The translations under genes were made by a program, and so were the position numbers. This document shows, one piece after another, positions 1 to 63,096 of a stretch of 64,000 nt of DNA (position 1 is the first letter of the stretch; the number at the start of each line of letters is the position of its first letter). The notes below the pieces were generated by a model. The model saw only the letters and a program-made list of their open reading frames with translations, was not told where the DNA came from and did not search any database. The DNA is from Phyllobates terribilis. Its lineage: Eukaryota. The stretch lies in contig NW_027362771.1 of assembly GCF_046119375.1 (NCBI RefSeq), forward strand, positions 529,604,001 to 529,668,000, written 5' to 3'.

Positions 1-79
1 GCAGGTGTTTAGCCAAATCCTGAACCGACACCATGATGGAACAAAAAAAAAAAAAAATCTTTCCTTAGAGAATTTGCAG

Positions 80-88
80 GCTGGACTT
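80..88 (-). promoter_or_regulatory. Self-priming-type primer binding site
   Basis: AAGTCCAGC lies 2 nt after the LTR end and is complementary to GCTGGACTT at 424-416, which starts 30 nt from the TATA. Confidence 0.6.
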
Positions 89-90
89 AC

Positions 91-512
91 TGTTATGTTC
101 TGCTACCAAAGCTAAGGAAAGAGAGGAGATCTGTCCCTACTATAGGACTCAGCTGAATCCCTACGATGTAACAGGGAACCTGATCCTGCGATCAGACCTG
201 CTAAAGTCCTAATCTAGTCTGTACGGAGACCTATAGATGTGGGGAGGGAATCCCTACAAGTACTAAGGACTGGGAGGAATATGGGACACCTCCTAACAGA
301 AATAGTAGCAGACAGACGAACAAACAAAATAGATAGAACATAGAGGTCCGTAGACCAAGCAAACTAACAGAGCTAGATACAGAGCACAGGCTAGCTAGAA
401 AGTAGATATACAATGAAGTCCAGCAAAGCCAGAAGGGCGGAGCAGGATTAAATAGGCCAACAAGGTCATGTGACCAGCAAAGGAAAAAAAACCTAACAGC
501 AAGGTTCTAACA
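91..512 (-). mobile_element. 5' LTR of a minus-strand chromovirus-type Gypsy element (body runs off the left edge), abutting the RT of a plus-strand Gypsy
   Basis: TGTTA...TAACA termini at 91 and 512; TATTTAA on the minus strand at 454-448; RT coding sequence starts right after 512. Confidence 0.7.
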
Positions 513-4101: not shown

Positions 4102-5777
4102 AGAGAGAAGATAGTGGCAAGCTTTGGAAGCTAGCAGTCCATCGAGGTACAAGGCCAGGAGACCCTATCCAAGAGTTTCCATGGGGCAAGATGACCGGCT
4201 GGTCCCAATCTGGCTTCTCTGAATGTCTCCATGGATTCCAGGTGACCGTACGGTCCCACCTGGCAACCCCAAACATATCCATGGGGCCAGGTGACTTCAT
4301 CGTCCCAACGTGGTCTCCCCAAATGTATCCATGAGTTCTTTGCTGGTCACTGGAGCGGATCCGTATCTTTCCAGTCAGGGCCATATACACTTAGGCCGGA
4401 ATCATGTAGAATCCAAATTTGTGTCTCTTTGTATGGAGCCGCCATGCTATCCATCTACTGTCCTGAAGGATGTCTCTCATTCTCCTTGTAAAGTCTTTCT
4501 TGATTCTCTATTTCAAGTCTGAATGCTACAGAAGCATATCTCCTTTGTAAGTACACATCCACAGGTCAAGGGTTAGGAATGATATCATTCCACAGGGCTC
4601 AGGTCTCATTCTTTGCTCATTTAATCAATTTACGTAGTTGGTATAGGAGGGGGCACCTTAAATCAACATCTAGCTGGTTTTTAGTGCAATATGTAATTAG
4701 CATATTATCAAACATCATTTTGCACAGACCCAAGAGGAGACAACAATCAGGGTTATACAAATAACAAGTATGTTCTTCTTGACCAGCCACAGAAATACAC
4801 ATACATTTACAAGTCAACATAAACACAATAGTGTATTTCTCTTGGCTTAACAAATCTAATCTTCTGGCTAATTAAGATTATAAGCTATATCATCACACCC
4901 ACTATGTAGAGGAAGACTACTGTTTGGGCGCACAAAAGGGCTTGCAACTAAAGGAGCGCCATTTGACTTTTTGAATGTAAAATTTGCTGGAATAATTAGC
5001 GGACGCCATGTTGTGTTTGGAGAGCCCCTGACTGCCTAAACAGTGGAAACCCCCCATAAGTGACACCATTTTGGAAACTAGACCCCTCAGTGAACTTATC
5101 TAGATGTGTGGTGAGCACTTTGAACCCCCAGGTGCTTCACAGAAGTTTATAACATTGAGCCATGAAAATAGAAAAAAAAACAAATTTTTCCCGCAAGAAT
5201 GTTTTGGAGCACAAAATTTTGCATTTTCTCAAGGGTAACAGGAGAAAATGGACCCCAAAATTTTTTGTGCAATTTTCTCTATGCAGATACCTCATGTGCG
5301 GTCAAAAACTACTTTTGAGGCATAGTGCAAAGCTCAGAAGGGAAGAAGTGCCATATTGCAGTTCAGATTTTGCTGGACTGGTTTGAGGGTGCCATGTCAC
5401 ATTGGCAGAGCCCCTGAGGTGCCAGATCAGCCGAACCCCCCCCCATAAGTGACCCCATTTTTACCACGAAAATTTTGTTTTAGCCCCAGGTTTTACATTT
5501 TCACACTGGGAAAGTAGAAATACCCCATGTGTGGCTGTACAGTACTGCTTAGCCACACGGCGGGAATCGGAAGGGACATAGCACTTTTTGCCTCCTTGAG
5601 TGCAGATTTTCGTAGAATACTTTGCGTACTTCATATACAGAGCTCCTACGTGCTAGAAGAGCAGAATCCCCCTCAAGTGACCCCATTTTGGAAATTATAC
5701 CCCTTTCTGAATTTATCTACAGGTGTAGTGACGATTTTGACTCCATGGGTGTTTTCCAGAAATAAGCAGCAGTGGAT

Positions 5778-6608
5778 CTAGAAGAGAGGTTAACTACCTT
5801 GAAAATCATTAAGGAAGGTGAAGAGTTCTTAGACAGAGCAGAATTATCTCTTCATGATTCAGAAAGAGAAGAAATTCGAACTGCACCTGACGAAACAGAG
5901 GAATGGAAGCATGTGACCCACAGAAGCAGGAGGATCGAGAGGCAGTCAGCACCCATACTGCTCAGGAACCAGTACCAGGCTCTCTCGCAGGAGAACCATG
6001 AAGAAATACAGCAAAATAAGACTTTGCCAGCAATGAATAACCTTGTAAGCCCTCAGAATCCTCCTGGATGGAGAAAGAACAATGTTGTGAAGAAAAAACG
6101 GAGAGTGGTGGTCATGGGGGATTCCCTGTTAAGAGGAACAGAGGCCGCTATCTGCAGACCAGACATAACCTCAAGAGAAATGTGCTGTCTTCCAGGAGCA
6201 AAAATTAAAGATGTGTCTGACAGGATATCAAGACTCTTCAGACCTACAGATCACTACCCATTCCTGCTAATACATGTGGGGACAAATGACACCGCAAGAA
6301 AGGACCTGGAAACCATCTGCAGTGACTTTGAAGACTTAGGCAAGAAAGTGAAAGAATTGGGAGCGCAGGTGGTCTTCTCATCCATCCTCCCAGTGGATGG
6401 CCATGGAACAATGATGTGGAATAAGATTCTACAGGTGAACAACTGGCTACGTCGATGGTGCCGTCAACAAGGATTTGGATTTCTGGATCACGGAATGAAT
6501 TACCTATACGATGGACTACTTGCTAGAGATGGGGTGCACCTTACGAAGACTGGAAAACATGTATTTGGAAGTCGCCTTGCTACACTCATCAGAAGAGCTT
6601 TAAACTAG
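5778..6608 (+). CDS. CR1 ORF1 C-terminal part with SGNH/GDSL esterase domain
   Basis: VVMGDSLLRG, HVGTND and DGVH blocks; the called GTG start lies in the flank, so the N-terminus is missing. Confidence 0.9.
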   Translation, partial: LEERLTTLKIIKEGEEFLDRAELSLHDSEREEIRTAPDETEEWKHVTHRSRRIERQSAPILLRNQYQALSQENHEEIQQNKTLPAMNNLVSPQNPPGWRKNNVVKKKRRVVVMGDSLLRGTEAAICRPDITSREMCCLPGAKIKDVSDRISRLFRPTDHYPFLLIHVGTNDTARKDLETICSDFEDLGKKVKELGAQVVFSSILPVDGHGTMMWNKILQVNNWLRRWCRQQGFGFLDHGMNYLYDGLLARDGVHLTKTGKHVFGSRLATLIRRALN

Positions 6609-6730
6609 AACAATGTGGGAAGGGAAGCAAAAGGCCAGAAAAAGCCATACAGCTGACAAATACTATTGAGATCTCTGCTACTGGAAGTGGAAAAGAAGAA
6701 CAAAGACAAAACAATTTAAATAATAAAAAT

Positions 6731-9517
6731 ATGGGAGGAAGAGAAACCAATCACAAACTAAAATGTTTTTATACAAATGCACAAAGCATGGGCAACAAAC
6801 AAGGAGAATTGGAACTACTGCAGGAAAAGGAATATGATGTCATTGGAATCACTGAAACTTGGTGGGACGATACACATGATTGGAATACAAGGCTAAAAGG
6901 ATACAACTTATTTGCAAGAAACAGACTTGATAAACGAGGAGGAGGTGTTGCATTGTATGTTAGAAAAGCGTATATCTGCACAGAGATTGAAGCTTCAGAG
7001 ACTGGGAGTTCTGTGGAAACTGTTTGGGTAAGAATACAAGGAGAGAACAACGGAAAGGACACCATTGTAGGCATTTACTACAGGCCACCTGGGCAAGCTG
7101 AAGATATGGATGAACTCTTTATGTATCAAATGACCAAGTTCTCCAAAAAATATGACGTAGTGGTCATGGGAGATTTAAACTATCCAGACATTTGTTGGGA
7201 ATCTCTCTCAAGTAAAGCTAACAGGTCAAGCAAATTCTTATCCTCTCTTGCTGACAACTTTATCTTCCAAAAGGTAGGGGAGAAAACAAGGGGATCTGCT
7301 ACTTTGGATCTAATCCTTATAAACAGGGAGGAAATGGTTGAGGAGGTAAAGGTGGCTGGGACCCTAGGAGGCAGCGATCATGCTATTATAGAATTTTGGA
7401 TAACTAGAGGAGGAAGACATGTGAAGACTCAAACTTCAAGGTTAGATTTTAGAAAGGCAGATTTTAAGAGACTCAGAAAGAGAATAGGAGGGATCCAATG
7501 GCTGGATGTCCTTAAGGACAAAAATGTCCAGGAAGGATGGGAAATTTTTAAAAATGAGATTCTCAAAGCACAATCGTTAACAATCCCGAAAAGTAGGAAG
7601 AATGGGAAGCATTTAAGGAAACCAGGATGGATGAACACAGAACTTAAACACATGCTAAAAAGAAAGAAAGAAATGTTTATTAAATGGAAAGAGGGAGGCA
7701 TATCTAAAGAAGATTATAATGCAGTCTGCAGATCCTGCAGGGCACGTATCAGGTTAGCTAAAGCTGACAATGAATTAAGGCTTGCAAGAGATGTCAAAAG
7801 CAATAAAAAAGGATTTTGGGGGTATGTCAAAAGTAAAAGAAAAGTCAAAGATGCTATAGGATTTTTACAGGATGAAAATGGAGAAATGGTAAGAGAGGAT
7901 GTTGAGAAGGCCGAACTTTTTAATTCCTATTTTGCATCTGTTTTCTCTCAGAAAGAAAATGTAACATCAACTGATCTTCACTGTCCTTTTAAAGGAATAG
8001 AGGAATCCAAGTTATCTGTAAACAGAAAGATTGTGAGGGAATATTTAGCTAACATGAATGAGTTCAAGTCTCCAGGTCCAGATGAATTACACCCCAGAGT
8101 ACTGAAGGAGATCGTAGAAGAAATTTTAGAACCACTCTCCATAATCTTTGAAAATTCTTGGAGAACAGGAGAAGTCCCAGAAGACTGGAGAAGAGCAAAT
8201 GTTGTTCCTATCTTCAAAAAGGGGAAGAAGGTGGACCCAGGGAACTATAGGCCGGTGAGTCTGACTTCTATACCAGGAAAGATCTTTGAACAAATTATTA
8301 AACAACATGTATGTAAGTACATGGATAAGAATGAAGTGATTAACCAGAGTCAGCATGGGTTTGTAACTAACAAGTCATGTCAGACTAACTTAATTTCCTT
8401 CTATGACAGAATCACTGACTGGGTGGATCAGGGAAATGCTGTAGATATAGTATATCTTGACTTCAGCAAAGCATTTGACAAAGTATCTCACACCATCCTT
8501 ATTGAAAAAATGACCAAGTATGCAATGGACCAGGCAACTGTTAGGTGGATTCATAACTGGCTTAGTGATCGGACTCAAAGGGTGGTTGCAAATGGCTTCA
8601 CATCCAGCTGGATGAATGTCTCAAGTGGGGTACCACAGGGCTCCGTCCTGGGACCTGTATTGTTCAACATCTTTATCAATGATTTAGATGAAGGAATTGA
8701 GGGTAAACTGATTAAATTTGCTGATGACACAAAGCTAGGAGGGATAGCTAATACTAGAGAAGAGAGAGAGAGGATTCAAAAAGACCTAAATAAACTGGAG
8801 CAGTGGGCAGCAACCAACAGAATGGTTTTTAACAGGGAAAAATGCAAAGTACTACATCTGGGCAATAAAAATGAAAAAAGCATATACAGAATGGGAGGAA
8901 TAGAGCTAAGCAACAGTACATGTGAAAAAGACTTAGGTATACTAATAGATCATAGACTGAACATGAGTCAACAGTGTGATGCAGCAGCAAAAAAGGCAAA
9001 TACAATTCTGGGATGTATTAACAGAAGCATACAGTCTAGATCACGTGAAGTCATTATCGGTCTTTACTCCTCTTTGGTCAGACCTCATCTGGAATACTGT
9101 GTACAGTTTTGGGCACCACATTTTAAAAAAGACATAGACAAACTGGAGCAAGTTCAGAGAAGAGCGACCAGAATGGTGACTGGTCTGCAAACCATGTCCT
9201 ATGAGGAACGGTTGCAGGATTTGGGAATGTTTAGCTTGCAAAAAAGAAGACTGAGAGGAGACTTAATAGCTGTCTACAAATATGTCAAGGGCTGTCACAT
9301 TGTAGAAGGATCATCTTTATTCTCATTTGCACAAGGAAAGACTAGAAGCAATGGGATGAAACTAAATGGGAGGAGACACAGATTAGATATTAGAAAAAAC
9401 TTTTTGACAGTTAGGGTGATCAATGAGTGGAACAGGCTGCCACGAGAGGTGGTGAATTCCCCTTCAATGGACGTCTTCAAACAGAGGCTGGACAGACATC
9501 TGTCTGAGATGATTTAG
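6731..9517 (+). CDS. CR1 ORF2, APE endonuclease plus reverse transcriptase, uninterrupted 928 aa
   Basis: ITETWW, MGDLNY, GSDH; YLDFSKAFD, GVPQGSVLGP, KFADD; HLEYCVQFWAP. Confidence 0.95.
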   Translation: MGGRETNHKLKCFYTNAQSMGNKQGELELLQEKEYDVIGITETWWDDTHDWNTRLKGYNLFARNRLDKRGGGVALYVRKAYICTEIEASETGSSVETVWVRIQGENNGKDTIVGIYYRPPGQAEDMDELFMYQMTKFSKKYDVVVMGDLNYPDICWESLSSKANRSSKFLSSLADNFIFQKVGEKTRGSATLDLILINREEMVEEVKVAGTLGGSDHAIIEFWITRGGRHVKTQTSRLDFRKADFKRLRKRIGGIQWLDVLKDKNVQEGWEIFKNEILKAQSLTIPKSRKNGKHLRKPGWMNTELKHMLKRKKEMFIKWKEGGISKEDYNAVCRSCRARIRLAKADNELRLARDVKSNKKGFWGYVKSKRKVKDAIGFLQDENGEMVREDVEKAELFNSYFASVFSQKENVTSTDLHCPFKGIEESKLSVNRKIVREYLANMNEFKSPGPDELHPRVLKEIVEEILEPLSIIFENSWRTGEVPEDWRRANVVPIFKKGKKVDPGNYRPVSLTSIPGKIFEQIIKQHVCKYMDKNEVINQSQHGFVTNKSCQTNLISFYDRITDWVDQGNAVDIVYLDFSKAFDKVSHTILIEKMTKYAMDQATVRWIHNWLSDRTQRVVANGFTSSWMNVSSGVPQGSVLGPVLFNIFINDLDEGIEGKLIKFADDTKLGGIANTREERERIQKDLNKLEQWAATNRMVFNREKCKVLHLGNKNEKSIYRMGGIELSNSTCEKDLGILIDHRLNMSQQCDAAAKKANTILGCINRSIQSRSREVIIGLYSSLVRPHLEYCVQFWAPHFKKDIDKLEQVQRRATRMVTGLQTMSYEERLQDLGMFSLQKRRLRGDLIAVYKYVKGCHIVEGSSLFSFAQGKTRSNGMKLNGRRHRLDIRKNFLTVRVINEWNRLPREVVNSPSMDVFKQRLDRHLSEMI

Positions 9518-14235: not shown

Positions 14236-14585
14236 TACTAGGGAAGGGACCGAGCAGAGGGACCAGGTGCTACTCTGGGACCGACCTTGTATGACAGCAG
14301 GTGACTCCCACGGGTCAGAAGGCAGGGACTGACCGGTACAGCAGATGAGCACGGCAGGCAGGCTGACGGGTGATCCGGGCAGACAGACTGGCAGACATGG
14401 CAGGTAATAAGCAGGAGCCTCCAGGTAGGCTGGTTGGTAGGCACAGCAGGTAACAGGCAGGTGCTTCCAGGTAAGCAGGCTGGCAGGCACGGCAGGTAAC
14501 GGGCAGGTGCTTCCAGGTAAGCAGGCGGACAGAGCCCATAGACAGACTGGCGGACTGGACTGTAGACAGACTGTCGGGCTGGAGA

Positions 14586-14845
14586 GTAGACAAGCTGGCG
14601 GACTGCACTTGTAGTCAGGCTGGCGGACTGGACTTGTAGTCAGGCTGGCGGACTGGACTTGTAGTCAGGCTGGCGGACTGGACTTGTAGTCAGGCTGGCG
14701 GACTGGACTTGTAGTCAGGCTGGCGGACTGGACTTGTAGTCAGGCTGGCGGGCTGGACTTGTAGTCAGGCTGGCGGGCTAGACTTGTAGTCAGGCTGGCG
14801 GGCTGGACTGGTAGTCAGGCTGGCGGGCTGGACTGGTAGTCAGGC
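14586..14845. repeat. 25-bp tandem repeat in the 3' LTR
   Basis: GTAGTCAGGCTGGCGGACTGGACTT units, 11 GTAG anchors at 25-bp spacing. Confidence 0.9.
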
Positions 14846-15164
14846 TAGCAGCGGGACCTGAGGGCTGAAGCAGAGTATAACACACAAAGCTACAACCTTG
14901 CACGGGCACCTCCATTTTGGAGGAGGTGCCTTTTATATGAGAGGTCCTCCGGCCATTGGCCGGGGACTCCTTAGGACGGCGCGCGCGCGCGCCCTAAGCA
15001 CAGTGCCCGGAAAGCTGCGCGTGCCGGCAGCAACAGAGGCAGGAGAGCATGAGGACGCCGGGCAGGGTGTGCGGCTGTAAGTGGGACCGCGTCTCTGCCT
15101 GTCAGGGGGCAGAGACGCCGATACTACAGTAGCCCCAACTTTACGCCCCCTATTTTTTAGGCCT

Positions 15165-16742
15165 GAAAGAAATTTTTTAAGGAGAAGCGGGGCGTGGATG
15201 TTCTCCCTGGGTTCCCAAGTTCTCTCCTCTGGGCCAAACCCCTTCCAATCCACCAGAAAAAAAGGTTTTTCCTCTTACCCTCTTGGTGGCCAGAATGTTC
15301 TCTACCTCATAGATGTCCTCAGCGGAGACCGGAGCTGGGGAGGTACCTGGATTGTCGGAAAAAGAATTAAGCACAACAGGTTTGAGGAGAGATACGTGGA
15401 AGGAGTTGGGAATCCGTAAGGTGGCCAGGAGTTTTAACTTGTAAGCTACTGGGTTGATTCGTTGGAGGACTTCAAATGGGCCGATGAACCGTGGACCCAA
15501 CTTATAGGAGGGTATTTTGAGACGAACTTGTTTGGAGGAGAGCCAAACCTTGTCTCCCGGATGGAATTGAGGCGGATCCAGACGTCTCTTATCAGCATGT
15601 CTCTTCATCCGCTCAGAGGATTGAAGAAGTTCAGACCTAGTGTCCTCCCAAATGGTCGAAAATTCGCTGACCAGAGACTCCGCGGCAGGGTTGTCCACAG
15701 CAGCCGAAACGGGAAACGGAATCCGGGGATGTTGACCGCAGACCACAAAGAACGGGGACTTGGAAGAAGATTCGCTCTCATGGTTGTTGTAGGAGAACTC
15801 GGCCCATGGTAGGAGCTCCACCCAATCGGTATGGTGAGCGTTGACGAAGTGTCGGCGGTAGCTGGTAAGGATCTGATTGATACGTTCCACTTGGCCATTG
15901 GACTGCGGATGGTAAGCAGAGGAGAAATCCAGGGTGACATCCAGCAGTTTACACGTATCTCTCCAGAAGCGCAAAGTGAACTGGACCCCTCGATCAGATA
16001 CTATGTTGAGGAGTAGGCCGTGGAGACGAAAGATGTGATGGATGAAATCCTTAGCCAGCACAGATGCAGACGGGAGACCAGGCAGAGGGATGAAGTGGGC
16101 CATTTTAGAAAAGCGGTCAGCGACCACCCAAATGACTGTACAACCGGCAGAAACAGGGAGATCAGTAATAAAGTCCATAGCAATGTATTGCCACGGGGCA
16201 GCAGGTACGGGAAGAGGCAGGAGATGGCCGGCTGGAAGATGTCTGGGAAGTTTATTGCGAGCACAGGACGAACAGGCCGTGACGAAGTCTACCACATCCT
16301 GGCGCAGGGTAGGCCACCAGTAATGCCGGGTAATGAGCAGGAAGGTCTTCTTCTGGCCAGCATGGCCGGCTAGTTTGGATGAATGACCCCAGTGAAGAAC
16401 CTTCTTACGATCCGGAACCACTACAAACGTCTTACCAGGTGGGAGATGAGAAAGGTCCAAGGGGGCCACATTCATCACTTTGGAGGGGTCGATGATATGC
16501 ATAGGCTCCTCCTCTTGATCGGACGACAAGAAGGATCGGGACAAGGCTTCGGCTTTAACGTTCTTGTCCGCCGGGCGGTAATGTAGGGTAAAGTTGAAGC
16601 GGGCGAAGAACAAAGACCACCGGGCCTGACGCGGATTGAGTCTTTGGGCATTCTGTAGATAAGCCAGGTTTTTGTGGTCAGTATAGATGACCACCGGGTG
16701 CAGAGTCCCCTCGAGCAGGTAACGCCACTCCTCCAGCGCCAA
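15165..16742 (-). pseudogene. pol: Chromovirus RNase H end, integrase and C-terminal chromodomain
   Basis: HSSKLAGH...CSSC, IAMDFITDLP, IVSDRGVQF, HPQSNGQVERIN; chromodomain DIYEVENILA...WKGFGPEERTWEP split by a frameshift near 15255. Confidence 0.9.
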
Positions 16743-16760
16743 TTTGATGGCTAGCAGTTC

Positions 16761-18332
16761 TCAGTCTCCTATGGAGTAGTTGTGCTCAGACGAGGAGAAG
16801 AGCTTGGAGAAGAAGCCGCAGGTTACCATTCTCCCGGATGGAGATTTCTGGGTGAGCACCGCTCCGGCTCCGGCAGAGGAAGCATCAACCTCCAGAAAGA
16901 ACTGTTTGTTGCTATCTGTACAGTGCAGCACAGGGGCGGAAGAGAAGGCTTGTTTTAAGGAAAGGAAGGCCTCCTCCGCTTCGGACGGCCATTCCTTAGG
17001 ATTTGCTCCCTTTCGGATGAGTGCAGAGATGGGAGCAGTCCGGGAAGAGAAATGTGGAATGAAGAGACGGTAATAGTTGGTGAAGCACAGGAATCGCTGA
17101 ATCGCCTTCAACCCCTCCGGACGGGGCCACTTTAAGACGGCAGAGACCTTCTCGGGGTCCATCCGTAGACCAGTCTTAGAGATAATATAGCCCAGGAACA
17201 GAAGGGAGGTCTGCTCGTAGAGGCACTTCTCAAAGTTTGCATAAAGGTGATTCTGCTTGAGCCTAAGCAGGACCTGACGAACATCCCTCCGGTGTGTGGG
17301 AAGATCCAGAGAGAAGACCAAGATGTCGTCCAGGTACACCACCACGCAAGAATATAAGAGGTCACGAAAGATGTCATTAACTAATCCTTGGAAGACGGCA
17401 GGAGCATTACAGAGACCGAAGGGCATCACACGGTATTCATAGTGACCGTCCCGGTTATTGAATGGCGTCTTCCACTCGTCTTCTTGGCGGATCCGGACCA
17501 AGTTATATGCCCCACGAAGATCGAGCTTGGTGAAGATCTTCGCGCCTTTAAGGCGGTCGAACAGCTCAGAGATGAGCGGCAGGGGGTATTTGTTTTTGGT
17601 AGTGATTTGGTTGAGACCTCTATAATCGATACATGGGCGTAGTGAACCGTCTTTCTTTTTTACGAAGAAAAATCCGGCTCCAGCCGGGGAGGAAGATTTC
17701 CGGATGAATCCCCTAGCCAGATTTTCTTCGATGTACTCCGACATGGCCCGGGTTTCGGCCAACGACAACGGGTAAATACGCCCACAGGGTGGAGTGGCAC
17801 CGGGTATCAGGTCGATAGGGCAGTCATATGGCCTATGAGGTGGCAGTGTCTCTGCCTCCTTCTTGTTGAAGACATCAGCATAGGACCAGTAAGGTGCCAG
17901 TAGACCAGGTAAATTAGTCGGAGTAGATGGAGGTAGAGCCGGGCGAACCGGAACCAGGTAGGTCTTATGGCAATCCTGCCCCCAACGGAGCACCTCACCG
18001 GATTGCCAGTTCAGAATGGGTACATGTCTCTGTAGCCAGAGTAGACCTAGCAAAAGAGGGTGAGAGAGTCCGGAAAGCACATGGAAGGAGATCCTCTCTG
18101 AGTGCAGCATTCCCACCTGCAGGGTTACGGGCTCTGTGACGAGCAAGATGGTCACCGGAAGGAGTCTTCCATCCACGGAAGCGACTGCCAATGGTTCAGC
18201 CAGAGATTTGGTAGGAATCTGATATTTCTGTACAAGGGACTGGGAAATGAGATTCCCAGCGGCTCTGGAGTCCAGATGGGCGGTCTCAAAGAAGCGGTTC
18301 TCTCCACAGGAGATAGAGACGGACAAAGTCAA
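16761..18332 (-). pseudogene. pol: Chromovirus protease-RT-RNase H
   Basis: HLDSRAAGN (mutated DSGA), PCIDYRGLN, VVYLDDILVFS, LEVDASSAGAGAVL. Confidence 0.9.
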
Positions 18333-18379
18333 GAACGGAGAGGATTTACTCTTGCCTAGGACGACCTCTCCGAGCGGTC

Positions 18380-19155
18380 CTAGACACTGGAGTTTCCTGG
18401 CTTCATCGGGCAGGAACGGATCAGGTGCTCCTTACTACCATAGTAGAAGCAGCTCCCCTCGGCTCGGCGTGTTTCTTGGCGAGATTTGACCATCTTGGTC
18501 TGGTCAATCTGCATAGGTTCGGGCGAGCGTGCCTGGGGAGTTGCTGATTGGGAAGCCGGTTTCTGGAAAACAGGAGCAAGACGAGGAAATCTTCTCTCCC
18601 GAGGGTACGGAACCATATGGCATACTGTGCCACAATGAGACTCCCTTTGCGGAGACGGAGCAATGAGGAGGCAGTAGAAATCCTTTGTCCAGGTTCATCG
18701 AAGACCTTCCGGAAGGCAGTGAGGAAAGCTGGAAGATCGGACACCAGGGAATCCCCTCTCTCCCATAGAGGGTTTAGCCATACCAATGCTTCCCCGGAGA
18801 GGTGAGACATGACGAACGCCACCTTGGCCCGGTCAGAGGGAAACTGATGTGGCAGAAGTTCAAAGTGCAGCGTGCACTGGTTCAGAAAGCCCCGACATAG
18901 GATGGGGTCACCTCCAAAATGAGGAGGCGCAGAGAGTCGGGGTCCTAGGCTGGATGCCGTGGTATTGGTAGGCAGCGGCGCTGCCGGAGCGGGTGTCGCT
19001 CGACTTGAGGCGGACACAGGTGGAACAGACAGCGTGTCCAGGCGAGAGTTGACAGACCGCAGGTAGGTCAGGATGGTTTCCTGTTGGGATCTCTGATGAG
19101 AAACCTCCTGGCACAGGTCAGCAAGCGAATGGGACTGGGGGCCACTGGGTTCCAT
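18380..19155 (-). pseudogene. gag: Chromovirus gag (Ty3 capsid-like, degenerate zinc knuckle), frameshifted
   Basis: PPHFGGDPILCRGFLNQCTLHF...KVAFVMSHLSGEALVW; CFYYGSKEHLIRSC knuckle lacking one Cys. Confidence 0.85.
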
Positions 19156-19156
19156 G

Positions 19157-19166
19157 GCCCGTGCAA
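19157..19166 (-). promoter_or_regulatory. Self-priming-type primer binding site
   Basis: TTGCACGGGC lies 2 nt after the LTR and is complementary to GCCCGTGCAA at 14907-14898, 30 nt from TATAAAA. Confidence 0.75.
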
Positions 19167-19633
19167 ACTGTTACGGATTCGGGTGGTGGAACCTCTGTGC
19201 TGCGGTGCAAGGAGGGACTAGAGGGTCGTAACTAGGTATCAACTCGGACCGACCAAGGTCGTACGGCGGCTCAATCGACTCCATGACCAGGGAGGGACCG
19301 AGCAGAGGGACCAGGTGCCTCTCTGGGACCGACCTTGTATGAGAGCAGGTGACTCCCACGGGTCAGAAGGCAGGGACTGACCATTACAGCAGATGAGCAC
19401 GGCAGGTAGGCTGACGGGTGATCCGGGCAGACGGACTGGCAGACACGGCAGGTAACAAGCAGGAGCCTCCAGGTAGGCTGGCTGGTAGACACGGCAGGTA
19501 ACAGGCAGGTGCTTCCAGGTAAGCGGGCTGGCAGGCACGGCAGGTAACGGGCAGGTGCTTCCAGGTAAGCAGGCGGACAGAGCCCATAGACAGACTGGCG
19601 GACTGGACTGTAGACAGACTTTCGGGCTGGAGA

Positions 19634-19995
19634 GTAGACAAGCTGGTGGACTGGACTTGTAGTTAGGCTGGCGGACTGGACTTGTAGTCAAGCTGGCGGG
19701 CTGGACTTGTAGTCAGGCTGGCGGGTTGGACTTGTAGTCAGGCTGGCGAGCTGGACTTGTAGTCAGGCTGGCGGGCTAGACTTGTAGTCAGGCTGGCGGG
19801 CTGGACTTGTAGACAGGCTGGCGGGCTGGACTGGTAGTCAAGCTGTCGGGCTGGACTTGTAGTCAGGCTGGCGGGCTGGACTTGTAGTCAGGCTGGCGGG
19901 CTGGACTTGTAGTCAGGCTGGCAGGCTGGACTTGTAGACAGGCTGGCGGGCTGGACTGGTAGTCAGGTTGGCGGGCTCGACTGGTAGTCAGGCTA
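19634..19995. repeat. 25-bp tandem repeat in the 5' LTR
   Basis: 15 GTAG anchors at 25-bp spacing. Confidence 0.9.
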
Positions 19996-20449
19996 GCAGC
20001 GGGACCTGAGGGCTGAAGCAGAGTATAACACACAAAGCTGCAACCTTGCATGGGCACCTCCATTTTGGAGGAGGTGCCTTTTATATGAGAGGTCCTTCGG
20101 CCATTGGCCGGGGACTCCTTAGGACGGCACGCGCGCCCCCTTTAAGAGGGAGGGAGCGCGCGCGTGCCCTAAGCACAGTGCCCGGGAAGCTGCGCGTGTC
20201 GGCAGCAACAGAGGCAGGAGCGCCGGATGACGCCGGGCAGGGAGCGTGGCGGTAAGTGGGACGGCGTCTCTGCCTGTCAGGGGGCAGAGACGCCGATACT
20301 ACAGAGAACTTTTCTCATCTCTAGTTACAGCTACTGCTACTGTAATTGTGCATATCTACAAGAATTCAGCTTGAAAATTAACCTTCTTCTGGAATCTTCA
20401 TACGTGCCTCCTGCAGTCGAGTCAAGCTATCTGATGAAATCTGTTTGTG

Positions 20450-20723: not shown

Positions 20724-21797
20724 TGTAACATGTTGACATGTCTTTCTAGTAATGAGTTCATATTACTGACAGTATAAATTTCTCATGCAATGACTTAGTC
20801 CGGCCATTAGGGGTCAGCAAGAAACAAGTAAAGAAAAAGCCCGGGGATCTGTAAAAAAGCCCGGGAAACAGAGAACCAGGAAGTCCTCTGAGGAGACAAG
20901 ACCTGTCTGATGCCCAGGGACGTTTGGGAGCTTGCACAGACTGCAGCCGGATGGTGTGTCCAAGAAGAAGCTGTGCCTTGTGAGTAACTGAGATATGTGA
21001 CCGGTCACCAACTGTGTAGTCAGTTAGGGAAACCTAGTTGATGATTCCAGTAGTGCTGAGAACGGCCTGGTGTATATCACTGCTGATGGACTGATCAGGC
21101 TTGATCCAGAGATTGTGAAGGATCTGGTATACTTAGACTCTGTGTACGTGGATTCTAGAAAGGACCCCTGTTGTGAACTACACTTTGAGACTGACATTGA
21201 TTCTAATTCCTGCTTACACCTGGATGTGCTGAAGAGCTTGGTGAGAAGGAGAAGCTGATCAAACCGTGTGGCCAGAGATCAGGGTCTAATAAAAGGTTTA
21301 GTTTGTTAACTGTTTGTATATGTATTAAGTCTGAGAGATTTCTCTTTGCTTTTGTAAGAAGAGAAACTGTACACTGTATAGGTAACGCATTGACTAAATA
21401 TATATATATGAGTGTTCTCTAAGGGGAAAACAAGGGTACCCAGATCCCACTGTATTATTGTGGGAGGGGGGTGTAAGTTTATATTCCTGGGAGGACCACG
21501 TGCCACGTCCGCGATAACATCCTGGGTAGGCCCTGTACTGAATAAGGGTGGGAGCGGCATAGCCCAGGGGTAGTTTGGCTCATTCCCGCAAGAATGGCAC
21601 TTGGCCTCTCTCTTGTGCTGCTTAACTTGTATTTTGTGTTAGTGGCCGTTGTGGCCCATATTTTGTAGAATCATTTAACCCTGTCATTTGTGTGACCAGT
21701 ATAAAGAAAGTTATTTGCCACTATACGAGGTCGGAGTCATTCATTGCAGCGCCGTATCCCTCATACACATTCGACCGGTGTTCTGGTCGTTACATCT

Positions 21798-21815
21798 TGG
21801 CGTAGGCGGCAGGAT
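21798..21815 (+). promoter_or_regulatory. tRNA-Ser primer binding site
   Basis: TGGCGTAGGCGGCAGGAT, 17/18 match to the complement of the vertebrate tRNA-Ser(AGA/TGA) 3' end. Confidence 0.85.
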
Positions 21816-26600: not shown

Positions 26601-27964
26601 TTGCACCGAGCAATGTTGAATGCGACTGTTGGGATGACTTGGGGGTGAGACCCTCGGATGTGCAGAGTCCGATAGCGCAAGTTCCAGGTGTTCCAGGCAC
26701 CGCCCCTGATGTTACTGTTCCACTAGATGCGGTGGACCCTCTATCGAGCTCGGCAGGTACTGGTTGCGGAGATCGGAGAGGAACACAGCTGGTGTTTCCC
26801 CGATACGATATAATCCTGAGGAGTATGTGTTACATATGAGTGGTATGAAACCATTTGTCGGGGCGCCAAATTGTAAGTGGGGTGGAGTATAACATGTTGA
26901 CATGTCTTTCTAGTAATGAGTTCATATTACTGACAGTATAAATTTCTCCTGCAATGACTTAGTCCGGCCATTAGGGGTCAGCAAGAAACAAGTAAAGAAA
27001 AAGCCAGGGGATTTGTGAAAAAGCCCAGGAAACAGAGAACCAGGAAGTCCTCTGAGGAGACGAGACGTGTCTGATGCCCAGGGATGTTTGGGAGCTTGCA
27101 CAGACTGCAGCCGGACAGTGTGTTCAAGAAGAAGCTGTGCCTTGTGAGTAACTGAGATATGTGACCGGTCACCAACTGTGTAGTCAGTTAGGGAAAGCTA
27201 GTTGGTGATTCCAGTAGTGCTGAGAACTGCCTGGTGTATATCACTGCTGATGGACTGAGCAGGCTTGATCCAGAGATTGTGAAGGATCTGGTATACTAAG
27301 ACTCTTTGTACGTGGATTCTAGAAAGGACCCCTGTTGTGAACTACACTTTGAGACTGACATTGATTCTAATTCCTGCTTACACCTGAATGTGCTGAAGAG
27401 CTTGGTGAGAAGGAGAAGCTGATCAAACCCTGTGGCCGGAGATCAGGGTCTAATAAAAGGTTTAGTTTGTTAACTGCTTGTATATGTATTAAGTCTGAGA
27501 GATTTCTCTTTGCTCTTGTAAGAAGAGAAACTGTACACTGTATAGGTAACGCGCTGACTAAATATATATATATATATGAGTGTTCTCTATGGGGAAAACA
27601 AGGGTACCCAGATACCATTGTATTAGTGTGGGAGGGGGGTGTAAGTTTATATTCCTGGGAGGACCACGTGCCACATCCGCGATAACATCCTGGGTAGGCC
27701 CTGTACTGAATAAGGGTGGGAGCAGCATAGCCCAGGGGTAGTTTGGCTCATTCCCGCAAGATTGGCACTTGGGCTCTCTCGGGCTGCATAACTTGTATTT
27801 TGTGTTAGTGGCCGTTGTGGCCCATATTTTGTAGAATCGTTTAACCCTGTCATTTGTGTGACCAGTACAAAGAAAGTTATTTGCCACTATACGAGGTCGG
27901 AGTCATTGATAGCAGCACCATATCCCTCATACACATTCGACCGGCGTTCCGGTCGTTACATCTC

Positions 27965-33890: not shown

Positions 33891-36221
33891 CATTTACCCC
33901 TGGGGGTATACATGAACATACTGTATAAAACAATTTTTTTACTGGCACCCTTTAAAAAATTATGTGGGTGTTGCATCACGGACCACGGTCACCCTAGTGA
34001 TATGGTGGTGGAAGATGAGGAGAAAGAGGAGGAAAGAGCAAATAGCCAAAATCAGGGAACGTATACCCATGTGTGGGTGTGAAAAGGTGCATGGGAATAC
34101 ACCTCCCAAAAAATACACTGGATTTGAGTTTATGTTACGCTGCTATCATTCGGTGGTGTTGAGAAGTCTGGCCCAATCCAGCCCGTGTTCATTTTTATAA
34201 GAGTCAGCCTGTCAGCATTTTCAGTTGACAGGCGGATGCGCTTATCAGTTATAATTCCACCAGCGGCACTAAAAACCTGCTCTGATAAAACGCTAGCGGC
34301 AGGGCAGGCCAGGACCTCCAAGGCGTAGAGAGCCAGTTTATTCCATGTATCCAGCTTGGATACCCAATAATTATAAGGCACAGAGGCATCACGGAGGAGG
34401 TTGGTACAGTCGGCAAGGTATTCCCTCAGCATCTTCCCAAACTTTGCACTCCTTGTGAGAGTACCCCGCGCCTCAGGGCCTGTGCGATGGGAGGGGCTGA
34501 GAAAATTCTCCCAGAACTTTGACAGTGTTCCCCTGGCTCTGCTGGATTGGAGTTGTGTCTCTCTCGCCTGTAGTCCTTGGTTATCCAACGAACCGTGACC
34601 TCTGCCGCCAGTGTTTTCAGATGGGAATTTTTTTAATAGTTCCGCAACAAGGGCTTTCTGGTACTGCCCCATTTTTGTAGACCTGTCCACCTCAGGATAA
34701 GAGATAAACAGTTCTCCTTGTAGCGTGGGTCTAGAAGTGTCACCAACCAGTAATGACTGTCACCCAAAATTTTGAGAACGCGAGGGTCATGGGAAAGGCA
34801 GCGTAACATAAACTCAGCCATGCGTGCCAGACTGCTAACAGGCAAGACTTCCGTGTCCTCACCAAGAGGATGAGTGACCATGCTCTTCTCCTCCTGTCTA
34901 TCCTCAGGCCATCCACGCTGAACAGACGTTATGACAGTTGTACACGTAGTACCGTCTATAGCGCATGAAACTTGCTCCTGTTCTTCCTCCTCCTCCTCTT
35001 CCTCATTGTCACCTAATCCACGTTGAGATGAGATGAGGCTGGGCTGTGTGTAATCACCCTGTATGGTTCCTTTCTCCATCTCATCGTGCTCCGCCTGCAA
35101 TGCATCCTCTTTGATTGTGAGCAGAGAGCGTTTCAGAAGACAGAGAAGCGGGATGGTGACGCTAATTATGGCGTCATCGCCACACACCATCTTGGTGGAG
35201 TCTTCAAAGTTTTGGAGGATGGTACATATGACTGACATCCATGTCCACTCCTGAGTTCTTATGTGTGGAGTCTGAATACCGACAGCCTTGTTGATGCTGG
35301 TACTCAACAACTGCCCTCTTCTGCTCACAAATCCGTCCCAACATCTACAGTGTAGAGTTCCAACGTGTGGGGACATCACACACCAGTCTGTGAGGCGGAA
35401 GCTGCAAACGCTGCTGAAACACGGCAAGGGCGGCGGAAGCTGTAGGTGACTTTCTAAAAGGGGCACACAGGTGGCGTACTTTAACAAGCAGATTCAGCAG
35501 CTCTGGGTAGGATTTGAGAAATCGCTGAACCACGAGGTTAAGCACATGGGCCAGGCATGGTATGTGTGTGAGCTCGTCTCGCCTCAGAGCCGCCACCAGG
35601 TTCCGGCCATTGTCTCACACGACCATGCCTGGCTGTAGGTTCAGCCGTGTGAGCCACAGATCTGCCAGCTCTTTCAGAGTTGTCCACAACTTTTCAGCAT
35701 TGTGCGGTTTGTTACGTAAGCATATTAGCTTCAACACAGCCTGTTGCCGCTTGGCCGAGGCAGTGCTGCAGAGCTTCCAGCTTGTGACTGATGTGGTAAT
35801 TTCGGAGATGGAGGCTGAAGAGGAGGAGGAGGCTGAGGAGGATGAGGTGCAGGAGCTGTAGACTGTGGGGGCAACCCTGATTGACCTAGGTGTAACATAC
35901 CTGGCGGCGTCCTTGCATGGTGGTCCATCTCCCACTGTGCAAGAGGGCGCACTTGATCTCCTGTCCAGAATGTCTCTCTGGCTTCCCTCCATGCTGTCTG
36001 TTTGTGTCTGTTTCTGCTGCTTAAGGGCGGCGCCCGATCACTTCCTGCCTTTTGTACCTGCTGTGGGTCACACCCCTTGTGCGTCCTCAGCCTATTGCTG
36101 TCTGTCACTTGGTATATAGCTCAGCAGCTCCCTTCTATCCCTGCCTGAGCATAGTGTTTCCTTCAGTGTGTGCTTGCACTCTGAAGGTGCCAGGTCCCGT
36201 CTCTTGTCTCCTGCTTTTTGT

Positions 36222-36490
36222 ATCAGTTCCCGTGTCTGAACTGAGTCCTGTATGTCTCCTGCTTTGCGGTATCAGCTCCCGTGTCTGAACTGAGTCCTGT
36301 ATGTCTCCTGCTTTGCGGTATCAGCTCCCGTGTCTGAACTGTGTCCTGTATGTCTCCTGCTTTGCGGTATCAGCTCCCGTGTCTGAACTGAGTCCTGTAT
36401 GTCTCCTGCTTTGCGGTATCAGCTCCCGTGTCTGAACTGAGTCCTGTATGTCTCCTGCTTTGCGGTATCAGCTCCCGTGTCTGAACTGAC
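36222..36490. repeat. 49-bp tandem repeat in the 5' LTR (6 anchors)
   Basis: GTGTCTGAAC at 36232, 36281, 36330, 36379, 36428, 36477. Confidence 0.95.
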
Positions 36491-37263
36491 TCCTTTCTGT
36501 GTTCTCTTGTCTGTCCTGTCTGAACACGCTCCTAGCCTGTTCCTCTCTGGGGGCCGTATTCCCAGACCCGCTCCTGTATCCCTCTGCAGTGTCGGTCTCC
36601 TCCGTACACTCAGTTCCAGTCTGAACTCTCTCCTGTCCTTTACCTGTTTTGCCTCTATGTCCGTTCCCTTCCTTTTTCTGCAGAGTCTGAACTCGTACCT
36701 AACTCCTGCTTGTTGTCTCTGCAAGTACTGTGTGAGTATCTGGCTCTGTCTTTCCCTTCCTGTCTGTTCCGTGTGAACAGAGCCTTGTCCTCCCTGCTCA
36801 GCCTTGTCTGCACTCTAGCTGTGCTTGCCTGTAACCCTCTGCCTGTATTGTTCCTGAGTCCCGGTGTGTACTGGGTCCTATCCCGCCTGTGTTCCTACCT
36901 GCTAGTGCCTCTCTGTCTGCACTCTAGCTGTGCTTGCCTTTACCCCCCTGCCTGCATACCCGCCTGCCTGCATACCAGTCGTGCCTGCCTATACCCACCA
37001 GTCTGTGTGCCAGCCTACCAGCCTGTTCCTGTATTCCCCTGTGTGGGTCAACAGCCGTGTCCGGGGTCTGTCCTGGAGTAGCACCTGGTCCCTCTGCTCG
37101 GTTCCTCCTTGGTGCACTGGCGTCGTATGCCGTCGTGCGACCCTGGTCGGATCGGGTGAATACTTAGTCACGCCCCTCCAGGCATTCACTCTCCGGCACG
37201 GTCCAGTGGAATCACTACCAATCACACGCACACGCCGCTTAGCCCGGGCGTGTGCATAACAGC

Positions 37264-37273
37264 ATGCTCAGGC
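37264..37273 (+). promoter_or_regulatory. Self-priming-type primer binding site
   Basis: ATGCTCAGGC lies 2 nt after the LTR and is complementary to GCCTGAGCAT at 36143-36152, 30 nt after TATATAG (36113). Confidence 0.8.
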
Positions 37274-37404
37274 CATGGTTCCCGTTGAGCCCCACGGCCT
37301 TCGCTCTTTGAGAAGTTTTTCCAGCGAATACATGCATTAAAATAAAATAAATACATTTTTTTCCCCCTTTAGCTGAGTTCCAGGCGAATTACGCACCCGT
37401 CCAG

Positions 37405-39309
37405 ATGGATCTATCAGCCCTCGTTCCTGCGGATCCGCCACGTTACTATGGGGATCCAAGACAGTGTCGTGCATTTGTGGAGCAATGCATGCTACACTTT
37501 AAGGCCTACCCTCTCTATTTTCCTTCCGATTGGGCTAAAGTGGCCTTTATGATTGACTACCTAGCGGGTGATGCCTTGAAATGGGTCACCCCCCTATGGG
37601 AAGCATGGGATCCTGTCATCCTTGACCTGCAGGCCTTCCTGGTGGCCTTTCGTATGGTCTTCGAGGACCCTAACTCTGAAGCCCCTGCTGAAGCTTCACT
37701 TCCCAATATCCCGGAGCAGCCCCGACGGGTAATGTGTGTGGGTAGCGCAATAGTCCTCCAGCCCAATGAGACTACTGCCCACCCAGAATCCTCACAAGGT
37801 GACTACGCTTTCCGGAATACTTCTCTCAACCTCAAGAGGCAGTCCAGACGTGCTAGACTTAGAGGCAAGCCGTCACGCCAGGGTCTGTCCTCCCTGAGAC
37901 CTCCTGACCCCAACCTTGAAGTCCCTACTGAAGCTTCATCTCCCTGTATCCCGGAGAAACCCCAATGGGTAATGTGCGTGGGTAGTGCACCAGTTCTCCT
38001 GGCCGAAGAGACTTCTGCCCATCCAGACTCCACACAGGAGAACTTCCTGCACCCGGCATCAGATGCTTCTTTCTCTTTAACCGGTGTGCATGTCCAAGGA
38101 TGCTCCAAAGCTGTGGTTACCTCAGAGTCTGTGCACCTCTACTACCTGGCGGAGGATCCCCTGTTGCCTCCTGAACCCTCCGGGATACCACTCGATGACA
38201 AATGGAGAGAGACTTCTCTACACCCGGTACTCAATACTTTGTCCGCTTCGTCCTGTGAGCCTGACAATGGGTACCCCAAAGTGGTAGTTACCTCCGAGTC
38301 TCTACACCCCTCCGACCAGGCGGAGGATCTCCAGTTGTCTCCTGAACCCTTCGGGGTGCTACCTGGTAGCGAAAGGACAGAGACTCTCCTATACTCTGTA
38401 CCTGATACCTCGCTCGCTTCGTCCAGTGAGTCCAACCTAGTGTACTCCGAAGCAGAGGTTACTCCTGAGTCTCTACACCCTTCCGACCAGGCGGAGGACC
38501 TCCAGTTGTGTTCAGAATCCTTCGGGGTGCCACCTGGTGGTGAATGGACAGAGACTTTCCTATATCCTGGATCTGATACCTCGCTTGCTTCGTCCAGTGA
38601 GTCCGACCTAGTGTACTCTGAAGCAGAGGTTACCCGTGAGTCTCTACACCCCTCTGACCAGGCGGAGGACCGCCAGCTGTCTCCAGAACCCTTCGGGGTG
38701 CCACCTGGTGGTGAATGGACAGAGACTTTCCTATACTCGGTACCCGATACCTCGCCTGCTTCCTCCAGTGAGTCCGACCTAGTGTACTCTGAAGCAGTTG
38801 TTTTCTCTGAGCCTCTGCACTCTTCTGACCCGGCGGAGGACCTCCAGTTGTTTCCTGAATCCTCCGGGATACCACCAGATAACAAAGAGACAGTGACTTT
38901 TCCTCATTATGTACCTGATAACCCGTCTATTTCTTCCTGTGAGCTTGACAAGATGTACCTCGAAGCAGAGATTACCCTTAAGTCTCTGTCCCCCTCCAAC
39001 CCAGTGAACGACTGGTCCTCGAATTCCCTGCGGAAGATTCTGGCAGGCCTGAAGAAGAGGGGGCGTAAGGGGGGAGGTACTGTAACATACCTGGCGGCGT
39101 CCTTGCATGGTGGTCCATCTCCCACTGTGCAAGAGGGCGCACTTGATCTCCTGTCCAGAATGTCTCTCTGGCTTCCCTCCATGCTGTCTGTTTGTGTCTG
39201 TTTCTGCTGCTTAAGGGCGGCGCCCGATCACTTCCTGCCTTTTGTACCTGCTGTGGGTCACACCCCTTGTGCGTCCTCAGCCTATTGCTGTCTGTCACTT
39301 GGTATATAG
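37405..39309 (+). CDS. 634-aa Ty3 capsid-like protein fused to acidic Ser/Pro/Glu tandem repeats, running into the 3' LTR
   Basis: PPRYYGDPRQCRAFVEQCMLHF...KVAFMIDYLAGDALKW matches the gag at 18421-19155; five 57-aa repeats; no stops. Confidence 0.8.
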   Translation: MDLSALVPADPPRYYGDPRQCRAFVEQCMLHFKAYPLYFPSDWAKVAFMIDYLAGDALKWVTPLWEAWDPVILDLQAFLVAFRMVFEDPNSEAPAEASLPNIPEQPRRVMCVGSAIVLQPNETTAHPESSQGDYAFRNTSLNLKRQSRRARLRGKPSRQGLSSLRPPDPNLEVPTEASSPCIPEKPQWVMCVGSAPVLLAEETSAHPDSTQENFLHPASDASFSLTGVHVQGCSKAVVTSESVHLYYLAEDPLLPPEPSGIPLDDKWRETSLHPVLNTLSASSCEPDNGYPKVVVTSESLHPSDQAEDLQLSPEPFGVLPGSERTETLLYSVPDTSLASSSESNLVYSEAEVTPESLHPSDQAEDLQLCSESFGVPPGGEWTETFLYPGSDTSLASSSESDLVYSEAEVTRESLHPSDQAEDRQLSPEPFGVPPGGEWTETFLYSVPDTSPASSSESDLVYSEAVVFSEPLHSSDPAEDLQLFPESSGIPPDNKETVTFPHYVPDNPSISSCELDKMYLEAEITLKSLSPSNPVNDWSSNSLRKILAGLKKRGRKGGGTVTYLAASLHGGPSPTVQEGALDLLSRMSLWLPSMLSVCVCFCCLRAAPDHFLPFVPAVGHTPCASSAYCCLSLGI

Positions 39310-39411
39310 CTCAGCAGCTCCCTTCTATCCCTGCCTGAGCATAGTGTTTCCTTCAGTGTGTGCTTGCACTCTGAAGGTGCCAGGTCCCGTCTCTTGTCTC
39401 CTGCTTTTTGT

Positions 39412-39778
39412 ATCAGTTCCCGTGTCTGAACTGAGTCCTGTATGTCTCCTGCTTTGCGGTATCAGCTCCCGTGTCTGAACTGTGTCCTGTATGTCTCCTG
39501 CTTTGCGGTATCAGCTCCCGTGTCTGAACTGAGTCCTGTATGTCTCCTGCTTTGCGGTATCAGCTCCCGTGTCTGAACTGAGTCCTGTATGTCTCCTGCT
39601 TTGCGGTATCAGCTCCCGTGTCTGAACTGTGTCCTGTATGTCTCCTGCTTTGCGGTATCAGCTCCCGTGTCTGAACTGAGTCCTGTATGTCTCCTGCTTT
39701 GCGGTATCAGCTCCCGTGTCTGAACTGAGTCCTGTATGTCTCCTGCTTTGCGGTATCAGCTCCCGTGTCTGAACTGAC
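39412..39778. repeat. 49-bp tandem repeat in the 3' LTR (8 anchors)
   Basis: GTGTCTGAAC from 39422 to 39765 at 49-bp spacing. Confidence 0.95.
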
Positions 39779-40865
39779 TCCTTTCTGTGTTCTCTTGTCT
39801 GTCCTGTCTGAACACGCTCCTAGCCTGTTCCTCTCTGGGGGCCGTATTCCCAGACCCGCTCCTGTATCCCTCTGCAGTGTCGGTCTCCTCCGTACACTCA
39901 GTTCCAGTCTGAACTCTCTCCTGTCCTTTACCTGTTTTGCCTCTATGTCCGTTCCCTTCCTTTTTCTGCAGAGTCTGAACTCGTACCTAACTCCTGCTTG
40001 TTGTCTCTGCAAGTACTGTGTGAGTATCTGGCTCTGTCTTTCCCTTCCTGTCTGTTCCGTGTGAACAGAGCCCTGTCCTCCCTGCTCAGCCTTGTCTGCA
40101 CTCTAGCTGTGCTTGCCTGTAACCCTCTGCCTGTATTGTTCCTGAGTCCCGGTGTGTACTGGGTCCTATCCCGCCTGTGTTCCTACCTGCTAGTGCCTCT
40201 CTGTCTGCACTCTAGCTGTGCTTGCCTTTACCCCCCTGCCTGCATACCCGCCTGCCTGCATACCAGTCGTGCCTGCCTATACCCACCAGTCTGTGTGCCA
40301 GCCTACCAGCCTGTTCCTGTATTCCCCTGTGTGGGTCAACAGCCGTGTCCGGGGTCTGTCCTGGAGTAGCACCTGGTCCCTCTGCTCGGTTCCTCCTTGG
40401 TGCACTGGCGTCGTATGCCGTCGTGCGACCCTGGTCGGATCGGGTGAATACTTAGTCACGCCCCTCCAGGCATTCACTCTCCGGCACGGTCCAGTGGAAT
40501 CACTACCAATCACACGCACACGCCGCTTAGCCCGGGCGTGTGCATAACACTAGGGCCTTCGATCCTTGGCGTCGGGAGGATGTGTTCCATTCCAAGGTCT
40601 GACTGGGTCCTGGCTTCCACTAGGTTAACCCAGTGTGCCATCAGTGAGATGTACCGTCCCTGCCCACAAGCACTTGTCCACGTGTCCCTGGTTAGGTGGA
40701 CTTTCCCTATAACTGCATTGTTGAGGGAACGGCTAATGTTTTCGGACACGTGCTTGTGTAATGCGGGGACGGCACACTGGGAGAAATAGTGGCGACTGGG
40801 GACCGAGTACTGAGGAACGGCCGCCGCCATCAGGTTGCGGAATGCATCCGTCTCCATGAGCCTTA

Positions 40866-58939: not shown

Positions 58940-58957
58940 TGGCGTAGTCGGCAGGAT
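58940..58957 (+). promoter_or_regulatory. tRNA-Ser primer binding site
   Basis: TGGCGTAGTCGGCAGGAT, complement of the tRNA-Ser(AGA/TGA) 3' end, 4 nt after the LTR. Confidence 0.9.
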
Positions 58958-59311
58958 TGTGACCAACCCGCCACAAACGGGTATTGCGCGCCTGAAAAGA
59001 GACTGTTTTATCGAATTGACTGTGTTGAAAGATGGCGCCCGCCCCAGCAGAACGGACGCCATAATGTGCGTGCCAAAAGACAACAGGAGGCCACCTCCCA
59101 TCGTGGGCCAGGTCCCAGAATGGCGCCAAAGAAGGAGCCCACCCCTGCCAGCCATGAATGCGGGTGTGGAGATGTCCATCAGCGTGGGGGGCTGCCCCTG
59201 AAAGTGATTGTCACCAAGTTGCCCCAGGACCACCCCCAATGGGGACGGGAAAGGAAGAAAACTGTGGGGTAGGGCGCGGTCTGGATCAGTCTAGACAGAC
59301 CGCACCCGGGA

Positions 59312-63078: not shown

Positions 63079-63096
63079 ATCCTGCCGACTACGCCA
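63079..63096 (-). promoter_or_regulatory. tRNA-Ser primer binding site
   Basis: TGGCGTAGTCGGCAGGAT on the minus strand, 2 nt after the LTR end. Confidence 0.9.

Follow-up and report, generated by a model that had tools for sequence, protein, structure and literature searches.

How do LTR elements start reverse transcription when no tRNA-type PBS follows their 5′ LTR? The question is raised by three elements, E1, E2 and E3, in a 64-kb stretch of frog DNA (the window), which is a nest of transposable elements comprising six LTR elements, one LINE and hAT pieces. From their sequences and those of their relatives, we consider it very probable that E1–E3 would use a Tf1-like self-priming without tRNA, in which the predicted 5′ end of the element's own transcript acts as primer on the PBS.

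Three elements share one layout around the PBS

In each of E1, E2 and E3, the 5′ LTR is followed after 2 nt by a 9–10-mer that is perfectly complementary to a motif within the LTR (Table 1). This motif begins 30 nt from the first base of a TATA-like box in 3/3 elements (at 454 in E1, at 20085 and 14937 in the two LTRs of E2, at 36113 in E3), and the distance from the terminal ACA of the LTR to the PBS is 2 nt, again in 3/3. The perfect self-match measures 9 nt in E1, 10 nt in E2 (with the 3′ LTR copy of the motif) and 10 nt in E3; that of E1 is one below the cut-off of at least 10 given in PMC6317226. The first-pass annotation had listed the three motif pairs, the 30-nt distance and the 2-nt spacing, and all were confirmed. 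It had also noticed a single CpG-type mismatch in the 5′ LTR copy of the E2 motif. This mismatch is indeed present, at 20051; being one of the 9 CpG-type changes among 29 LTR–LTR differences in E2, it fits decay after insertion. A tRNA 3′-end-type PBS (TGG start) was not found in E1–E3, and the 64-kb window held no tRNA gene.

Table 1. Coordinates of LTRs, predicted primers, PBSs and coding parts of the LTR elements in the window
Element	Feature	Position	Strand	Description
E1	5′ LTR	91..512	-	422 bp, termini TGTTA..TAACA
E1	TATA-like box	448..454	-	TATTTAA
E1	predicted self-primer (predicted RNA 5′ end)	416..424	-	GCTGGACTT, read 424-416
E1	PBS	80..88	-	AAGTCCAGC, read 88-80; 2 nt (GT) past LTR
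E1	U5-leader stem	58..122	-	11 perfect pairs, 122-112 (U5) with 68-58 (leader); encloses PBS
E1	possible gag start	2..34	-	ATG at 34 and 11 codons, open at the window edge
E2	5′ LTR	19169..20303	-	1135 bp; TATA 20085-20078
E2	5′ LTR tandem array	19587-19994		25-nt unit, 16.4 copies
E2	primer motif, 5′ LTR copy	20046..20055	-	GCCCATGCAA; one CpG-type mismatch at 20051
E2	PBS	19157..19166	-	TTGCACGGGC, read 19166-19157; 2 nt past LTR; gag ATG at 19155
E2	gag-protease-RT-RNase H-integrase-SH3-chromodomain	15140..19155	-	Pfam; interrupted by stops and frameshifts
E2	3′ LTR	14237..15128	-	U5 end missing; TATA first base 14937
E2	perfect primer copy, 3′ LTR	14907-14898	-	GCCCGTGCAA
E2	3′ LTR tandem array	14539-14846		12.4 copies
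E3	5′ LTR	35891..37261	+	1371 bp; TATA first base 36113
E3	primer	36143-36152	+	GCCTGAGCAT
E3	5′ LTR tandem array	36205-36494		49-nt unit, 5.9 copies
E3	target-site duplication	35886-35890 and 40550-40554		CTAGG
E3	PBS	37264..37273	+	ATGCTCAGGC; 2 nt past LTR
E3	single long frame	37351..39309	+	gag-like domain and 57-aa repeats; no pol
E3	3′ LTR	39081..40549	+	primer copy 39333-39342; array 39395-39782, 7.9 copies
E4	TGG-type PBS	21798..21815	+	non-chromovirus; LTRs 20726-21797, 26890-27963
E5	TGG-type PBS	58940..58957	+	LTRs 57658-58939, 61304-62585
E6	TGG-type PBS	63079..63096	-	

E1 is inserted into the RT of another Ty3/gypsy element, on the + strand, whose frame resumes at 513. Since no target-site duplication follows the E1 LTR, E1 is not a solo LTR; its coding part lies beyond the window edge. 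The LTR end is placed by the TGTTA..TAACA termini rather than defined by a repeat. The 11 codons left in the window gave no convincing match among the proteins compared, so that the protein provides no classification and the class membership of E1 is judged on geometry only.

E2 has the PR-RT-RH-IN order with a C-terminal chromodomain (Pfam Chromo, E 5.4e-9 on 15140-15259) that characterizes Ty3/gypsy chromoviruses, and the closest proteins to its RT are from frogs (79–89% in poison frogs), then from fish. The end of its 5′ LTR is placed by the TAACA terminus, by the start of gag 12 nt downstream and by homology of its U5 to that of E3 (78% over 119 nt). Two contig sets aligned over 14848-19430 (30/30 bins) gave a far deeper coverage of the LTR than of the internal part; the family is abundant in contigs, and the copy in the window has private differences. 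Among the 40 variant rows listed, of 1053, none fell in primer or PBS. Two raw RNA runs over the same interval gave 2 and 0 reads, too few to place the transcription start.

E3 is the one element among E1–E3 whose LTR end is defined by a direct repeat together with a target-site duplication. Outside the tandem array, its two LTRs align over 1081 bases with 1 mismatch. The long frame includes a gag-like domain with 47% identity to E2 gag over 109 aa (E 5e-27), and in the lack of pol E3 must be non-autonomous. The likenesses of gag (47%) and U5 (78%) indicate that E3 is likely a young gag-only relative of E2; as related elements, E2 and E3 are not independent cases. Between the first ATG and the long frame lies an A/T-rich segment (37310-37374) that contains AATAAA and a run of pyrimidines closed by AG; it resembles a splice acceptor or an insertion.

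The number of array units differs between the LTRs of a single element, from 16.4 to 12.4 in E2 and from 5.9 to 7.9 in E3, the latter despite otherwise nearly identical LTRs. The primer-to-PBS loop spans 334 nt in E1, 887 nt in E2 and 1119 nt in E3. AATAAA and ATTAAA are absent from all three LTRs (91-512, 19169-20303, 35891-37261). A further observation concerns E1 and E2 together: the E1 PBS with 4 additional nt (88-76, - strand) is identical to part of the 25-nt R/U5 unit of E2 (13-nt exact match, E 0.05), and the E1 PBS 9-mer has 8 exact copies in the E2 LTRs. This identity may reflect chance, a shared origin or a decoy array.

The other three LTR elements, E4, E5 and E6, carry an 18-mer TGG-type PBS, which we take to be of the tRNA-Ser type, and provide controls within the window. 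E5 (57658-62585) is nested in E6 and lacks pol. A frame of 351 aa (59588-60643) encodes a cold-shock domain, and the E5 LTR itself contains a PBS-like copy near 58793. The LINE (5766-9517) combines an esterase-like (GDSL/OSK) ORF1 with a 996-aa endonuclease-RT frame.

Pairing and letters in related elements

The metagenome scan covered 78 loci, from the best 80 of 547 confirmed stretches, plus one viral contig; viral contig searches gave 0 and 1 relatives. An unanchored scan of the 79 loci was noisy and was taken as a source of leads only. A quick RT tree covering 101 rows, computed without bootstrap and without a named reference element, places the E2 RT among chromodomain-bearing polyproteins of frogs and fish (SH-aLRT 98). 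Five loci (L001, L002, L003, L006 and L010) fall with fish proteins in this clade, their hosts being inferred from the tree only. Primer and PBS are both present in 4/5 of them and the geometry is found in 4/4 (L001, L002, L003 and L006), with a match of 9–10 nt at offset 2 and differing letters. L010 has a like PBS and its upstream LTR is missing; the LTR of L002 ends in ATA, not ACA.

Seven elements, E1–E3 and these four loci, were testable. In this set, 44/49 bases at positions −30 to −24 are A/T, the step from −1 to +1 reads T|G in 7/7, in keeping with a pyrimidine-purine transcription start, and pairing stops exactly at this step. The A/T box, the T|G step and the end of pairing are features that were not used in finding the motifs, and an end of pairing at the T|G step is expected if the motif is the RNA 5′ end. 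Eight of the first 9 pair positions vary in letters between families. When primer and PBS are taken from different elements, only 3–7 of 9 positions match; the 9/9 matches of cognate pairs are partly by construction, because primers were found by complementarity. Even the E2 and E3 pairs differ at three positions, on both sides. The earlier claim that motifs differ and pairing is kept, made for E1–E3, now extends to 7/7 testable vertebrate-clade elements.

Of 21 metagenome loci with repeat-defined LTR ends, 8 show the geometry and 5 are unclear. The remaining 8 form one distant clade, in which the match is limited to 8 nt, located about 88 nt upstream of the LTR end and without TATA box. Neither a TGG PBS nor a TATA+30 match is seen in L025, L037, L043, L056, L058, L068, L070 and L077.

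These comparisons bear on the possibility that a host RNA (a tRNA fragment, an internal tRNA stretch or another small RNA) binds the PBS, the LTR complement being a structural or recombination by-product. Half-tRNA priming does exist in copia lineages, as described in PMC6317226. However, the 8 vertebrate-clade PBSs are mutually different and none carries a TGG at up to 5 nt from the LTR end (0/3 for E1–E3, 0/5 for the clade loci). In addition, 7/7 testable PBSs match their own LTR at TATA+30, which a host primer does not predict. We regard a host RNA primer as very unlikely and retain self-priming.

Predicted structure of the RNA around primer and PBS

A U5-leader duplex of equal stability was reached in at most 6/300 shuffles for 5/8 elements (E1, with 3/300, L001, L002, L006 and L010). 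It is weak in E2 (18/300), L003 (43/300) and E3 (166/300), and it is also present in 2/3 TGG controls (E4, 9/300; E6, 11/300). As a diagnostic of self-priming the stem was rejected, since it occurs in TGG controls and is weak in E2, E3 and L003. The data are compatible with the three-duplex 'pretzel'; according to 10.1101/2022.12.06.519325, Tf1 priming requires three duplexes.

In a cofold with the E2 5′ LTR copy, the full primer-PBS duplex did not form. A 9–10-bp duplex closing over 0.9–1.1 kb must compete with local folds. Two further complementarities were observed. TTGT or TGTT lies 2–3 nt after the primer in E1, E2, E3 and L002 and could pair with the last LTR bases. In E3, a U5 motif common to E2 and E3 (37170-37176) is complementary to a G-rich stretch immediately upstream of the 3′ LTR (39060-39068); this possible 5′–3′ RNA pairing amounts to 7 bp in E3 and 5 in E2, and was absent from 4/4 fish-clade loci examined.

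Could the primer-PBS pairing serve RNA folding, packaging or a translation control that hides the gag start, priming being achieved otherwise? Long-range 5′ pairings are frequent in retroelement leaders, and an ATG is found 2 nt after the PBS in both E2 and E3. Yet no other primer site is visible in these elements, and the complementary stretch sits exactly at the place required for a PBS. The identical layout is, moreover, one of proven priming in Tf1, according to PMC7175516. A role confined to structure or translation appears most improbable to us, and self-priming remains the preferred reading.

Chance expectation and TGG controls

The match test accepted a perfect complement anywhere in the LTR with any PBS offset of 0–5, and was applied to 2000 dinucleotide shuffles. 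The observed match length was reached in 29/2000 shuffles for E1 and 22/2000 for E3; for the E2 3′ LTR match, the analytic chance figure is 0.009. With its own 5′ LTR, E2 has only a 6-nt perfect match, because of the mismatch at 20051, and this was reached in 1795/2000 shuffles. When only the six sites at TATA+28..33 are considered, the chance is 1.7e-4 for E1, 6e-5 for E2 and 2e-5 for E3. In the controls E4, E5 and E6 (3/3), the best self-match is 5–6 nt and was reached in 920–1865 of 2000 shuffles.

A blind scan with a loose pattern gave 11 matches in the window, 4 of which belong to E1–E3, against 2–9 (mean 5.0) in 15 shuffled windows; with such a background the loose pattern is non-diagnostic unless anchored at a real LTR end. 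Chance matches selected post hoc, an explanation to which these roughly 5 matches per shuffled window and the inferred LTR ends of E1 and E2 lend something, are largely refuted by probabilities per element of 1e-4 to 1e-5 once the position is restricted, by 4/4 independent relatives and by 0/3 controls, and we give them hardly any credence.

A proposed priming route for E1–E3

Self-priming without tRNA, proposed in the first-pass annotation, is supported by four observations: the lack of a TGG PBS, the pairing kept in 7/7 elements, its end at the T|G step 30 nt from the A/T box, and TGG controls without a match. That annotation had also noted that self-priming was already proposed for vertebrate sushi-type chromoviruses, which PMC6317226 and 10.1101/2022.12.06.519325 bear out. 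Its description of the three elements as chromoviruses holds for E2, which has the chromodomain, and goes beyond what E1 and E3 display. The best explanation is that all three are frog members of the vertebrate Tf1/sushi chromoviruses, E2 by its domains, E3 by likeness in gag and U5, and E1 by geometry only.

In the route that we propose, the T|G step lies 30 nt from the TATA box and its G would be the first base transcribed by Pol II. The first 9–10 nt, which have the potential to pair with the PBS, would then fold onto it, possibly helped by the U5-leader stem. As in Tf1, where the first 11 bases pair with the PBS and the cut falls between bases 11 and 12 (PMC7175516), the RNase H of RT would cut near base 11–12 and free a 3′ OH, from which RT would extend the RNA primer to give minus-strand strong-stop DNA. 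E3 would depend on RT supplied in trans. Primer and PBS could covary under selection, or because each new PBS is copied from the primer during plus-strand synthesis; both routes require use of the motif as primer.

These points can be combined into a wider picture, unlikely as a whole, in which the frog primer-PBS pair would be a fast-changing, family-private key of 9–10 letters that each cycle copies from the primer into the PBS. This key would close over loops of up to 1.1 kb with variable tandem arrays and be kept by young gag-only parasites like E3. Copies of the E1 PBS in the E2 array could then capture E1-family primers as decoys or allow priming in trans.

The layout predicts, to the base, capped ends at 424, 20055 and 36143, and cleaved ends some 11 nt downstream of each. 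The families concerned are abundant, and one has nearly identical LTRs. Vertebrate self-priming appears to rest on sequence prediction, the literature speaking of it as proposed or implicated. Our literature search, which covered mainly openly accessible papers, found no experimental test of self-priming in vertebrates; the 'self-priming' of PMC4340606 is an RT-PCR artefact and irrelevant here. If the proposed route is true, the commonest frog LTR elements might escape silencing by PBS-directed tRNA fragments. Amn-san outnumbers every other LTR group in the Xenopus genome (PMC4131045), and the available text of that paper mentions neither PBS nor self-priming.

Comparison with known systems

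The Tf1 mechanism and its extension to vertebrates are described in PMC7175516, PMC4600332, PMC6317226 and 10.1101/2022.12.06.519325. Self-priming is already regarded as a general property of the Tf1/sushi group, with its vertebrate members. In Tf1/Tf2 (Schizosaccharomyces pombe) and Tj1 (S. japonicus), the primer is formed by the first RNA bases, the PBS lies just past the 5′ LTR, a TATA is located upstream and stems flank the pair. Self-priming is also predicted for Tcn1. Among the matches listed, 12 distant loci of fungal-like/moss Tcn1 type, picked by hand, have a 9–12-nt self-match at offset 1–2 and a TATA 30–35 nt upstream. These hand-picked loci start mostly with C|A (10/12), in contrast to T|G in the vertebrate clade (7/7).

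With vertebrate Tf1/sushi elements, E2 has in common the Ty3/gypsy order with C-terminal chromodomain, the lack of a tRNA PBS and a PBS complementary to the predicted RNA 5′ end. In the sushi LTR model of PMC3601003, the promoter stretch is AT-rich and an AATAAA is placed close to the 3′ end; E1–E3 have no AATAAA. The fish-clade loci L001–L003 have loops of 237–415 nt and an AATAAA shortly before the LTR end; the loops of E2 and E3 (0.9–1.1 kb, with tandem arrays and without AATAAA/ATTAAA) are two to three times longer. E3 is gag-only, unlike vertebrate Tf1/sushi elements, among which Amn-san and sushi-ichi are known here from descriptions, not from sequence.

E1–E3 probably add members to the known self-priming Tf1/sushi group, as confirmation and detail rather than as a new mechanism. 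What is added is a base-exact layout common to frog and fish-clade families, its retention in the young gag-only E3, longer loops, and the identity between the E1 PBS and the E2 array.
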